DNA of 64,000 bases from an uncultured Clostridia bacterium (GTDB taxonomy: Bacteria; Bacillota; Clostridia; TANB77; CAG-508), in NCBI GenBank assembly GCA_944387565.1, contig CALXFJ010000004.1, positions 5,587-69,586 of the forward strand, read 5' to 3'. Both the position numbers and the translations under genes were made by a program. Below, one piece after another: positions 49,636 through 49,975 of the stretch. The notes beneath the pieces were generated by a model. The model ran no database searches, was not told the DNA's origin, and worked only from the letters and a program-made list of their open reading frames with translations. Position 1 is the stretch's first letter, and each line of letters opens with the position of its first letter.

Positions 49636-49664
49636 TTGATTTTTGCAAACAAATGTTATATAGT
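49636..49664 (+). promoter_or_regulatory. Sigma-A promoter of the small hydrophobic peptide gene
   Basis: TTGATT (49636-41), a 17-nt spacer, then TATAGT (49659-64). Confidence 0.55.
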
Positions 49665-49725
49665 ATTAAACATAGGAAATGAGAATAAGCAGATGTGGTT
49701 TGCCTCCAACAAGGAGGTGAGGCTT

Positions 49726-49848
49726 ATGGTAGAAATACAAACATTAATTGCAACAATATACATATTATATTATTCATTAATTGGAGTAACTATCATAGCA
49801 ATTGCCTTAATTATAGCATTAGCAGTAATTTTGAGCAAAAGCGAATAA
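49726..49848 (+). CDS. 40-aa hydrophobic membrane peptide (type I toxin candidate)
   Basis: MVEIQTLIATIYILYYSLIGVTIIAIALIIALAVILSKSE. A strong RBS AGGAGGTGA lies 8 nt upstream. The SD can be sequestered by the upstream GCCTCC (49702-07). I prefer this ATG over the longer track ORF, which starts at TTG 49636 with no RBS. Confidence 0.55.
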   Translation: MVEIQTLIATIYILYYSLIGVTIIAIALIIALAVILSKSE

Positions 49849-49852
49849 ACCA

Positions 49853-49940
49853 ATAAAAAAACACATCTGTTAACTTTGGCGAGTTAGATGTGTTAAACAT
49901 TGATACTTGGCGAACCACGTTTGTGGTTTCTCCATTTCCT
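49853..49940 (-). ncRNA. Candidate ~90-nt antisense small RNA, convergent with and abutting the peptide gene
   Basis: On the minus strand a consensus promoter (49975-49947) is followed by two hairpins: GAACCAC/GTGGTT, and AACACATCT/AGATGTGTT with U7. The second is an intrinsic terminator only in the minus orientation. No plausible ORF/RBS. Confidence 0.45.
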
Positions 49941-49946
49941 GTAATT

Positions 49947-49975
49947 ATTATACACAGTTTAAACAAATTTGTCAA
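49947..49975 (-). promoter_or_regulatory. Consensus sigma-A promoter on the minus strand
   Basis: The reverse complement reads TTGACA (49975-70), a 17-nt spacer, then TATAAT (49952-47). Confidence 0.65.

Follow-up and report, generated by a model that had tools for sequence, protein, structure and literature searches.

What does the region directly downstream of spo0A encode in the window, i.e., in the whole stretch of 64,000 nt analysed here, and do the short hydrophobic ORF on its plus strand and the promoter facing it on the minus strand belong to one functional unit? Positions 49636-49975 are probably a complete chromosomal type I toxin-antitoxin (TA) module of a family not described before, the toxicity of its peptide being presumed. 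That is to say, the kind of system is known (3′-overlapping type I TA), and the family, judging from its sequences, would be new. The sequence-only reading of this DNA had put forward a type I TA candidate composed of a transmembrane (TM) peptide and a convergent, 3′-overlapping sRNA, and this proposal is now supported by conservation, a fixed antisense promoter, RNA covariation, coding evolution, multicopy and patchy spread, one-sided decay and expression.

Layout of the cassette

The module forms a self-contained cassette of 340 bp (49636-49975), located directly after spo0A in the window sequence, and the coordinates given for its elements by the sequence-only reading all match the sequence. 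Its features are as follows.

49636..49664, plus strand: toxin promoter, TTGATT (49636-41), 17-nt spacer, TATAGT (49659-64), 9/12
49672..49725, plus strand: leader of 54 nt, which holds the 5′ box, leader box, anti-SD and extended SD
49672-85, plus strand: 5′ box AUAGGAAAUGAGAA, in the leader
49690-704, plus strand: leader box CAGAUGUGGUUUGCC, in the leader
49702-07, plus strand: anti-SD GCCTCC (GCCUCC in RNA), in the leader
49711-20, plus strand: extended 10-nt SD AAGGAGGTGA (RNA: AAGGAGGUGA), containing the SD GGAGGT (49713-18)
49726..49848, plus strand: candidate toxin ORF (a listed ORF), 40 aa, MVEIQTLIATIYILYYSLIGVTIIAIALIIALAVILSKSE, ATG at 49726 and TAA at 49846-48
49853..49940, minus strand: antisense sRNA (candidate antitoxin), about 87 nt, with 5′ tail AGGAAAUGGAG, hairpin 1, variable linker and terminator
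49909..49933, minus strand: sRNA hairpin 1, GG-AGAAACCAC-AAAC-GUGGUUCGCC, found in 57/57 alleles
49853..49895, minus strand: sRNA intrinsic terminator, hairpin 49895-49860 with stem AACACAUCU/AGAUGUGUU and an inner mini-stem, U7 at 49861-49855
49947..49975, minus strand: antisense (candidate antitoxin) promoter, TTGACA (49975-70), 17-nt spacer, TATAAT (49952-47), 12/12
49672..49705 (left arm) and 49908-49941 (right arm), no strand: co-varying inverted repeat (repeats I1 and I3)

Both promoters look like the sigma-A type in sequence. The plus-strand site had been proposed before and holds with its score of 9/12, and the minus-strand site, which had been called perfect, is indeed the sole 12/12 site in the 2.5 kb scanned. 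In a single-sequence scan, promoter-like sites are as frequent as expected from shuffles (17 vs 15.7), so that the module goes beyond chance because the whole unit is conserved in more than 60 loci, and not because of such a scan. Homologues of the toxin promoter (TAGACA-17-TATACT and similar) average 9.4/12 and in most loci precede the ATG by about 61 nt. On the opposite strand, a near-consensus TTGACa-16/18-TATAAT is present in 64/64 distinct intact loci examined, its −10 ending 89-104 nt past the stop codon; the best minus-strand site in these loci scores 10-12/12, with a mean of 11.2 vs 8.8 for the plus-strand control. The antisense promoter outscores the toxin promoter (11.2 vs 9.4 of 12) and is retained in 69/69 modules, including the 10 with a damaged toxin side; as far as these loci tell, it is obligatory for the module. 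No second copy of the module was found within the 64-kb window.

The leader is almost invariant across 45 alleles, and the SD is sequestered in the predicted folds of 45/45 leaders. The pairing of GCCTCC with the SD, already suggested for the window, is borne out by a predicted pairing probability of 0.98 over the 45 alleles (vs 0.43 with the upstream part shuffled) and by compensatory variants of the SD hairpin, namely CCCCC/GGGGG in L056 and CCUCU/AGAAGG in L030. Changes of loop length in L008, L009, L057 and L070 throw an upstream ATG (49693) out of frame, and the stretch that follows it is therefore an RNA leader and not coding sequence. ORFs of 51 aa or 70 aa were ruled out, as leader-length variants break their frame and an SD exists only before the 40-aa start.

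The candidate toxin, whose sequence reads exactly as first given, consists of one long hydrophobic helix and a short polar C-terminal tail. The earlier description of a single TM peptide of this form is supported by a GRAVY of 1.81, with 19-residue windows reaching 3.2, and by an AlphaFold2 model in which residues 2-39 are helical (pLDDT 95). At about 30 residues, the hydrophobic stretch is long for a single TM helix, which counts against a type I toxin, and so does the tail: in the window it is SKSE with a net charge of 0, whereas most type I toxins have a longer and more basic one. Most relatives end in SKQK or CKSK, and the tails found across relatives (SKSE, SKQK, CKSK or SK) comprise 2-4 residues and are not lysine-rich. 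With a dN/dS of 0.42 and the least variation at codon position 2, the ORF is, on this comparison, evolving as coding sequence, and the dN/dS value indicates only moderate constraint. Searches of Pfam, NCBIfam and PDB returned zero matches for the peptide or its relatives, none of 18 family members matched any Pfam model at E <= 10, and PHROG matches were weak only (best E = 0.008), in agreement with the first impression that the peptide lies outside known families; no match to the peptide motif was found in the published literature either.

In the genomes, the peptide is uncalled, or called with a false 11-residue extension, or annotated as hypothetical.

For the minus strand, an RNA of roughly 90 nt with two hairpins, a U7 run and a 3′ end near the stop codon had been predicted, and it is recovered here, likewise as a prediction, as about 87 nt running from 49940 to about 49853, its U7 run lying 7 nt from the toxin stop codon. 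The 5′ tail is predicted to be single-stranded, and the fold has an MFE of −26.7 kcal/mol (z = −3.67 vs shuffles). In the 57-sequence sRNA alignment, 85.7% of cells pair vs 35-49% with partners slid, and compensatory change occurs at 12/23 pairs, which was matched by 0/500 shuffles. These figures come from per-sequence folds and explicit pair counting in the 57 alleles; RNAalifold on a MAFFT alignment gave just 3 pairs because indels misalign the terminator. Hairpin 1 has both-sided changes at 5/10 pairs, and one of its pairs is G·U in 34/57 alleles, which would read as an A·C mismatch on the plus strand. The terminator shows compensatory stems (GCGCAUCU/AGAUGCGU in L010, ACACCACA/UGUGGUG in L041 and AACCAUUC/GAAUGGUU in L031), and its basal pair is AU in 31 alleles, GC in 14 and CG in 3. 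By this comparative evidence, the predicted sRNA fold is conserved across the 57 alleles, with compensatory changes and strand-specific G·U pairing. A coding sRNA was ruled out: the ATG in its tail is not conserved and is replaced by ATA, ATT or AAG in several loci, so the sRNA is non-coding. Rfam gave no family at gathering score on the whole window, and on the module region merely chance microRNA-like matches, which fall on the spo0A terminator.

The 3′ overlap and the proposed working

The sRNA region (49940-49853) lies entirely downstream of the stop codon (49848) and on the opposite strand, which bears out the 3′-overlapping layout of TxpA/RatA and BsrG/SR4 to which the locus had been likened. 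Since the sRNA overlaps neither the SD nor the ORF, any effect on translation must be indirect, a point against the module as proposed. The terminator hairpin is also present in the toxin 3′ UTR and constitutes the minimal region of perfect complementarity. How far the complementarity extends depends on the plus-strand T-tract after this first hairpin. It is absent in the window and in 23 other alleles, while 33/57 related alleles (58%, counted with anchored motifs) carry it and thus have a bidirectional terminator. The observation that the plus-strand hairpins lack a U-tail therefore stands for the window and fails for these 33 alleles. In the same way, the claim that the mRNA reads through and is fully complementary to the sRNA is likely in the window and is not assured for the family, as the bidirectional terminator in 58% of alleles would limit the overlap to about 40 nt.

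The following working is proposed for the type I module. A moderately strong sigma-A promoter would give a toxin mRNA of about 225-270 nt from 49671/2, whose 54-nt leader would lock the unusually long SD AAGGAGGUGA in a hairpin with the anti-SD GCCUCC, so that the message would be poorly translatable as made. The 40-residue, very hydrophobic, single-helix peptide with its short polar or basic tail would insert into the membrane and do harm on accumulation. From the consensus promoter on the opposite strand, a sRNA of about 87 nt (49940 to about 49853) would be made, ending a few nt from the toxin stop and perfectly complementary to the toxin 3′ UTR, over at least the terminator hairpin of about 40 nt and up to the whole sRNA with read-through, which is likely in the window. 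The two RNAs would presumably make contact via their complementary hairpin loops, RNase III would act on the resulting duplex, and this cleavage would hold the toxin mRNA low, as in txpA/RatA and bsrG/SR4. A possible second layer is that the leader is complementary to the same 3′ segment, so that sRNA and leader would compete, and this competition could couple sRNA binding to the structure around the SD. Toxicity, transcript strand, duplex formation, the nuclease and the effect on translation are points that we infer.

Through the inverted repeat, the mRNA 5′ end is complementary to the plus-strand RNA across the sRNA 5′ domain. In the predicted transcripts, mRNA and sRNA begin with co-varying copies, in the same sense, of one stretch of about 34 nt, and the leader box recurs in the same sense as the 3′ arm of hairpin 1 together with GCC. 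The two arms vary in matched fashion, locus by locus; the cognate arm duplex averages −40 kcal/mol, and divergent loci favour their own arm partner (L041 −35 vs −25, L043 −34 vs −19, L063_b −32 vs −23, L019 −45 vs −34). The MFE fold of 49672-49941 reaches −78.8 kcal/mol, with a predicted closing 5′-3′ helix stacked on the SD hairpin. The sole direct repeat (D2) is at or before the mRNA start. The leader 11-mer AGATGTGGTTT (49691-701) had been singled out for its complementarity to the sRNA hairpin arms; this complementarity is present and involves the 5′ arm of each of the two 3′ hairpins (inverted repeats I7 and I1). It is more simply understood as belonging to the co-varying inverted repeat, by which the leader reproduces the sRNA 5′ domain in the same sense; the leader is therefore equally complementary to the mRNA's own 3′ extension, and sRNA-leader pairing would have to open two stable hairpins.

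It is possible, and proposed here tentatively, that the leader is a co-evolving mimic of the antitoxin 5′ domain: the read-through mRNA would close on itself by a 5′-3′ helix of about 27 bp stacked on the SD hairpin, inert and protected, and the sRNA would compete for the same 3′ segment. Such a mimic would explain the locus-by-locus co-variation of the two 5′ regions. If it exists, control would depend on a cis element and a trans RNA that share one sequence and compete, and not on simple antisense occlusion; we know of no type I system for which this cis/trans logic has been described.

It is unlikely that the sRNA of this type I module has the 5′ leader as its main target in trans (pairing there had been suggested by the sequence-only reading), with the 3′ overlap as a by-product of the layout. 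The partners just upstream of the SD would then be AAACCACA and CACAUCU, with GGAG, from the sRNA 5′ arms, and UGUGGUUU and CUCC from the leader, in a manner resembling SprA1AS or par RNA II. In favour of this mechanism, both sRNA hairpins have 5′ arms to which the leader box is complementary (I1, I7), covariation keeps this complementarity in the divergent L041, L031, L063_b and L067, and SprA1/SprA1AS and par provide a precedent (PMC8167048, PMC7472228). However, two structures, hairpin 1 (7 bp plus GG/CC) and the SD hairpin, must be opened to gain about 12 bp interrupted by a bulge, and the pairing would sequester the anti-SD and not the SD, so that it predicts activation and not repression. 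Moreover, the 5′ tails that co-vary (AUAGGAAAUG in both RNAs) have the same sense, which precludes their pairing in trans, and par-like direct repeats were not found in the window.

Distribution, decay and expression

A homologue search with the 40-aa ORF gave 66 clusters, and 62 loci were located in species-representative genomes, which are MAGs of gut Clostridia. The peptide/sRNA pair, on whose conservation in relatives the first proposal depended, recurs as a complete module with both promoters at more than 60 loci. The genomic context is not conserved across loci. Whether the unit follows spo0A, follows addB or sits between trx and HD genes, which are unrelated contexts, the conserved DNA in all three spans exactly from the plus promoter to the minus promoter. 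Tandem arrays occur at L031 (three copies), L063, L066 and L024, four genomes have two loci each, and presence among close relatives is patchy (15/71); such a multicopy, patchy distribution is typical of type I TA. Comparison of spo0A-linked loci with and without the module shows a replacement hot spot, and a search of these loci for an empty site or target-site duplication gave no clean insertion boundary. The module DNA had no match in phage and plasmid collections (blastn, distant mode), nor did the peptide profile in IMG/VR. No prophage, plasmid or mobile-element link of the module was thus found in these collections, unlike in many Gram-positive type I systems, which counts against it.

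Toxin-side lesions, i.e., loss of the start codon, SD, promoter/leader or reading frame, are found in 10/69 modules (L021, L024_b, L028, L038, L052, L053, L059, L064, L065 and L068), and most of these 10 retain an intact sRNA. Among the 69 modules, there is no intact ORF without the antisense promoter; as the loci were collected via the peptide, copies lacking the sRNA would have been detected.

The RNA data are unstranded assembled metatranscriptome contigs, whose ends may also mark branch points of the assembly graph. In the chicken-gut X27 and X28, positions 49694-49937/40 lie on a single unstranded contig with a depth of 81x and 20x, against about 0-5x in the flanks. X26 contains a 280-nt paralogue contig that runs exactly from start site to start site at 64x (unstranded), and in X29, X32 and X33 the unstranded coverage of the ORF region is 95-276x with flanks at 0. 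RNA contigs begin at 49671/49672, which is 7-8 nt after the toxin −10, and end at 49937-49940, at the predicted sRNA start (unstranded). Gut metatranscriptomes show transcription of the module, with RNA ends at the two predicted starts. The L062 allele, against which the run contigs were compared, was absent from the chicken-gut runs.

A rival reading, which is quite unlikely, takes the peptide for a harmless small protein of the membrane, such as a component or regulator of some membrane complex, its level being tuned by a cis-antisense RNA; neither a toxin nor an addiction-like logic would then be involved. In favour of this reading, small hydrophobic proteins are often non-toxic, the SKSE tail in the window is not basic, the mRNA is abundant in vivo (unstranded contigs), and no mobile-element association was found. 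However, the variable genomic context means that there is no partner gene, tandem and multi-locus copies have divergent sequences, and presence is patchy among close relatives. Three layers of repression are conserved, namely a weak promoter, a locked SD and a strong antisense promoter, and decay is strictly one-sided and always on the peptide side, which is expected of a harmful product with an antidote and not of a useful subunit. That the region is a selfish or relic MITE-like repeat bounded by inverted repeats, with functionless ORF and promoter-like sites, is hardly credible: the unit does contain an inverted repeat (about 34 nt) and occurs in many contexts, variable regions among them, but the repeat is internal to two conserved promoters and not terminal, neither a target-site duplication nor a clean empty site was found, the ORF is under coding-type constraint, compensatory changes mark both RNA structures, transcription of the region is strong and specific, and viral and plasmid collections hold no match.

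The type I TA family favoured here is widespread in uncultured low-GC gut Clostridia of humans and chickens and is highly expressed in the gut (unstranded contigs). New type I families are hard to find because their tiny toxins and RNAs escape annotation. For this one, natural variation across more than 60 copies already marks out the promoters, the two RNA folds and the SD lock, so that it is ready for experiment. If the toxicity is true, the module would offer a compact cassette for counter-selection or containment in gut Firmicutes, a new peptide scaffold that acts on membranes, and a natural test case of a 3′-overlapping antisense RNA that communicates with a distant SD.

Comparison with known type I systems

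The only experimentally studied type I systems of Clostridia, according to a 2019 review, are those of C. difficile (PMC6563280). CD2517.1/RCd8, CD2907.1/RCd9, CD0956.2/RCd10 and others are convergent and overlapping, with toxins of 34-59 aa that carry an N-terminal TM segment and lysine-rich C-terminal regions; they have prophage and CRISPR-array links and sigma-B promoters (PMC6563280). The present module shares the convergent overlapping genes and the small TM toxin, but has a tail of 2-4 residues, no mobile-element or CRISPR link that could be seen, and sigma-A-like promoters. Among the few homologue matches bearing a source name, none is labelled C. difficile; the comparison with its toxins is one of described features.

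In hok/sok, the full-length hok mRNA is inert by its fold and is activated by 3′ processing. The same holds for aapA1/IsoA1, where the full-length mRNA is translationally inert by its fold and 3′ processing activates it (PMC5416894). The predicted fold of the read-through mRNA here resembles both in closing the 5′ end on the 3′ end beside the SD hairpin. In hok and aapA1, however, the antisense RNA pairs with the 5′ part of the mRNA, whereas here it is encoded at the 3′ end and would therefore compete with the leader for the 3′ segment; in addition, the fold-back here is predicted and requires read-through of the first hairpin.

In par (fst/RNA II of E. faecalis pAD1), the two RNAs first touch through their complementary terminator loops, the SD is concealed by an intramolecular 5′ stem-loop, and the extreme 5′ end of the mRNA is in a helix (PMC7472228). 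The likeness extends to sizes (an mRNA of about 230 nt and a small antisense RNA, about 87 nt here and about 40 nt in par), to convergent promoters with a common intrinsic terminator, bidirectional in 58% of alleles here, and to the 5′ hairpin hiding the SD and the extreme-5′-end helix, both predicted here. The differences are that the terminator in the window is not bidirectional, and that the repeats between the 5′ regions are inverted here (I1, I3) and direct (DRa/DRb) in par, so that the two 5′ regions are alike rather than complementary; the repeat analysis of the window revealed no sRNA segment complementary to the translation initiation region. Unlike Fst/Ldr, to which no Pfam match links it, the peptide lacks the PXXXG motif and conserved Trp, and no aligned member has Pro or Trp.

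The txpA/RatA and bsrG/SR4 systems of B. subtilis are convergent, encode single-TM toxins of 38-59 aa, and have an antitoxin promoter stronger than the toxin promoter (PMC8167048). The SD of txpA is very strong and that of bsrG is structured, and in bsrG the binding at the 3′ end alters the structure of the SD region and recruits RNase III (PMC8167048). The module resembles them in its convergent genes, small single-TM peptide, stronger antitoxin promoter, strong or structured SD, and an sRNA (49940-49853) wholly past the toxin stop on the opposite strand. It differs from them in having no toxin sequence similarity (no Pfam or NCBIfam match), an overlap of about 40-90 nt restricted to the 3′ UTR vs about 120 nt, a locus outside any prophage or skin element, and a leader and sRNA 5′ domain that are co-varying same-sense copies. 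To our knowledge, such copies have not been reported for TxpA/BsrG systems. Among the systems compared, bsrG/SR4 is probably the closest functional analogue of the module.

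The module downstream of spo0A and its elements

The module lies in low-GC DNA (28% GC) between the spo0A terminator hairpin and a split radical-SAM-like gene. A type I toxin-antitoxin candidate had been proposed here from the sequence alone; every element listed in that sequence-only reading was found in its place, and the interpretation is supported by the comparison with relatives. The elements are as follows:

48603-49409, plus strand: Spo0A gene (TIGR02875, E = 1e-116)
49557-49604: strong terminator hairpin downstream of spo0A
49636-49664, plus strand: candidate toxin promoter, TTGATT, 17-nt spacer, TATAGT
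Plus strand: toxin leader of 54 nt, with anti-SD GCCUCC (49702-49707) and SD GGAGGU (49713-49718)
49726-49848, plus strand: 40-codon ORF
49975-49947, minus strand: antisense promoter, perfect TTGACA, 17-nt spacer, TATAAT
Minus strand: predicted antisense sRNA of about 87 nt, two hairpins and a U7 run, ending 7 nt from the toxin stop codon
50152-50854, plus strand: split radical-SAM-like gene

The SD falls within a 10-nt stretch, AAGGAGGUGA, that matches the 3′ end of 16S rRNA, and the predicted sRNA fold has an MFE of -26.7 kcal/mol (z = -3.67). In a single-sequence consensus scan, promoter-like sites are just as numerous as expected from shuffles; since such a scan carries little weight by itself, the case rests on the comparison with relatives. 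Rfam gave no family at gathering score over the whole 64-kb window, and no riboswitch, tRNA-like or known sRNA match. Beyond the module, the adjacent plus-strand ORFs 50152-50367 and 50393-50854, in different frames, are both weakly similar to radical-SAM TIGR01210 (E = 0.007 and 9e-5) and look like one frameshift-split gene, that is, a pseudogene or an assembly error.

The peptide family and its distribution

The ORF is often called as 51 aa by gene callers (MWFASNKEVR...); this start was rejected, the upstream ATG being out of frame in several loci (leader length variants) and the SD being present only at the 40-aa start. Among 38 distinct 40-codon alleles dN/dS is 0.42, and variability at codon position 2 is half that at positions 1 and 3, which is what a hydrophobic helix should show. 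The invariant residues include Y12, I13, L14, Y16, L18, G20 and T22, the tail varies (SKSE, SKQK, CKSK, SK), and AlphaFold2 predicts a single helix (residues 2-39, pLDDT 95). The peptide, which the sequence-only reading did not recognise, has no family match in Pfam, NCBIfam or PDB and only weak matches in PHROGs, and no published description of its motif was found in the literature search. At 49792-49827 the ORF contains an 18-nt tandem duplication, ATCATAGCAATTGCCTTA and ATTATAGCATTAGCAGTA, encoding IIAIAL and IIALAV, and internal duplication may account for the length of the hydrophobic stretch.

Homologues of the peptide form 66 clusters (68-100% identity), all unnamed or labelled hypothetical. 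The peptide-family search suggested earlier, run as a profile scan of species-representative genomes, recovered 62 loci with the module conserved, all from uncultured gut Clostridia or 'Clostridium sp.' MAGs; the exact window DNA occurs mainly in chicken-gut metagenomes, and phage, plasmid and IMG/VR collections gave no match. The neighbours vary by locus (after spo0A, after addB, between thioredoxin and HD genes), and DNA similarity between loci reaches from one promoter to the other and no further. Four genomes have two loci each; one of them, the genome with the window-identical peptide, carries L033 and the 50%-identical L062. Moreover, two or three divergent modules stand in tandem at four loci (L031, 1470-2720; L063, L066 and L024), with clearly different toxin subtypes (IATIYILYY..., LLIIKLLF..., QAMLLIIYLLF...), and every module examined carries an antisense promoter and matching leader/sRNA variants of its own.

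Among 71 metagenome relatives (Spo0A 73-83% identity), 15 have the module within 2.5 kb after spo0A, at several distances, and the DNA after spo0A (window 49410-50150; loci L071-L150) is a replacement hot spot in the lineage. No clean empty site downstream of spo0A was found among the compared loci; the matched pairs L104/L105 and L119/L113 differ by unrelated 0.4-1.4 kb segments, not by a clean insertion. In L104, a small minus-strand ORF lies downstream of the module within the same variable segment (about 820-1010 nt after the extract start), which, judged by eye, reads like a ribbon-helix-helix, antitoxin-like DNA-binding protein.

The antisense gene, one-sided decay and expression

The best minus-strand promoter reaches 10-12 out of 12 in every one of the 64 distinct intact loci examined (mean 11.2), against a mean of 8.8 for the plus-strand control in the same DNA and 9.4 for the toxin promoter, and its -10 box ends 89-104 nt past the stop codon. 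All 57 distinct alleles share one sRNA shape, namely a 5′ tail, hairpin 1, a linker and a terminator. Pairing cells make up 85.7% of the sRNA alignment, versus 35-49% with the partners slid, and two-sided changes occur at 12 of 23 pairs, a number reached by none of 500 shuffles. In 34 alleles, one hairpin 1 pair is G·U; since its plus-strand equivalent is A·C, this indicates selection for the structure of the minus-strand RNA. This RNA is non-coding, since the ATG in its tail is not conserved.

Damage on the toxin side is found in 10 of 69 modules: a nonsense codon (L028), loss of the start codon and/or SD (L052, L053, L059, L024_b), or deletion of the promoter, the leader or the 5′ portion of the ORF (L038, L021, L064, L065, L068). 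A near-consensus antisense promoter survives in all ten, and the sRNA is intact in most. None of the 69 modules has an intact ORF without the antisense promoter, and since the loci were found via the peptide, copies without the sRNA would have shown up. This asymmetry matches the prediction for a harmful product with an RNA antidote, and is the best indirect evidence for the putative toxicity.

In gut metatranscriptomes, where contigs are unstranded, depth is a whole-contig average and ends may be assembly-graph branch points, two chicken-gut samples (X27, X28) each have a single contig over 49694 to 49937 or 49940, at 81x and 20x, with flanks, including spo0A, at about 0-5x. For the same reasons the minus-strand sRNA transcript counts as predicted. 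X26 has a 280-nt paralogue contig at 64x whose match to the window runs exactly from 49672 to 49940; further RNA contigs begin at 49671 or 49672, and the contig ends fall 7-8 nt past each -10 box. Depth over the ORF region in X29, X32 and X33 is 95-276x, against 0 in the flanks; since the sRNA lies outside the ORF, this signal shows that the toxin mRNA is abundant in its own right. In one X32 contig (depth 29), an Illumina adapter is joined directly to 49688, so many fragments begin there, 16 nt past the predicted mRNA start, and processing at this point may trim the 5′ box (49672-49685) off the mRNA.

The leader, the overlap and the comparison with known systems

In 45 of 45 distinct leaders the SD is paired with a probability of 0.98, compared with 0.43 when the upstream part is shuffled. 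The pairing also holds in a divergent subfamily with a different anti-SD, and compensatory variants occur in L056 (CCCCC/GGGGG) and L030 (CCUCU/AGAAGG). The message would therefore be made in a poorly translatable form, a recurrent trait of type I toxin mRNAs (PMC7472228, PMC5416894).

Complementarity between the sRNA and the toxin 3′ UTR is perfect. On the model of RatA/txpA and SR4/bsrG, the duplex would be cleaved by RNase III, and its formation might also change the structure around the SD. It had been proposed that the plus-strand hairpins lack a U-tail and that the peptide mRNA reads through; this is likely, toward 49940, for the window and 23 other alleles, which have no T-tract, but 33 of 57 alleles do have one after the first plus-strand hairpin, making the terminator bidirectional, as in par, and the overlap about 40 nt.

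The mRNA and the sRNA begin with same-sense copies of one another (~34 nt in the mRNA, ~36 nt in the sRNA), which form an inverted repeat at the DNA level (I1, I3), and both copies vary together locus by locus: both RNAs contain AUAGAAAAUG in L019 and L044, AUGAAAAA in the L005 group, and GUGCUACC in L041 and L043. Complementarity of the leader to plus-strand RNA therefore extends over the sRNA 5′ domain. The cognate leader/3′-segment duplex has a computed mean of -40 kcal/mol, the own partner is clearly preferred in divergent loci, and the MFE fold of 49672-49941 brings its 5′ and 3′ ends together in a closing helix that directly adjoins the SD hairpin. This predicted closure could be a hok- or aapA1-type clamp, with the sRNA as competitor. 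Alternatively, the repeat could be what remains of an inverted duplication whose copies gene conversion has kept alike. Pairing of the sRNA itself with the leader, as the sequence-only reading suggested, would use the same complementarity, but two stable hairpins must open, the SD would be freed rather than blocked, and the co-varying 5′ tails are left unexplained.

A second leader type exists within the family. Upstream of the leader box in L022, L028 and L058, which differ in toxin subtype, the AUAGGAAAUG box gives way to GCTTCGCAATTTGGyAGCGTTAT, which forms a small hairpin and is joined to AAGCAGATGTGG; this leader is seen as RNA (an X33 contig ending at window 49685). Since a box-less leader exists, the clamp, if real, is not universal.

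That the module is a functional toxin/antisense-antitoxin pair is quite probable; its detailed mechanism is much less certain. Its layout is that of the 3′-overlapping Gram-positive systems. By sequence it falls outside the TxpA/BsrG and Fst families, and, judged by its tails and by the few homologues that carry a source name, nothing suggests that it belongs to the C. difficile type I families. In summary, the module represents a new family of an established class, type I toxin-antitoxin systems, with a TxpA/RatA- or par-like layout.
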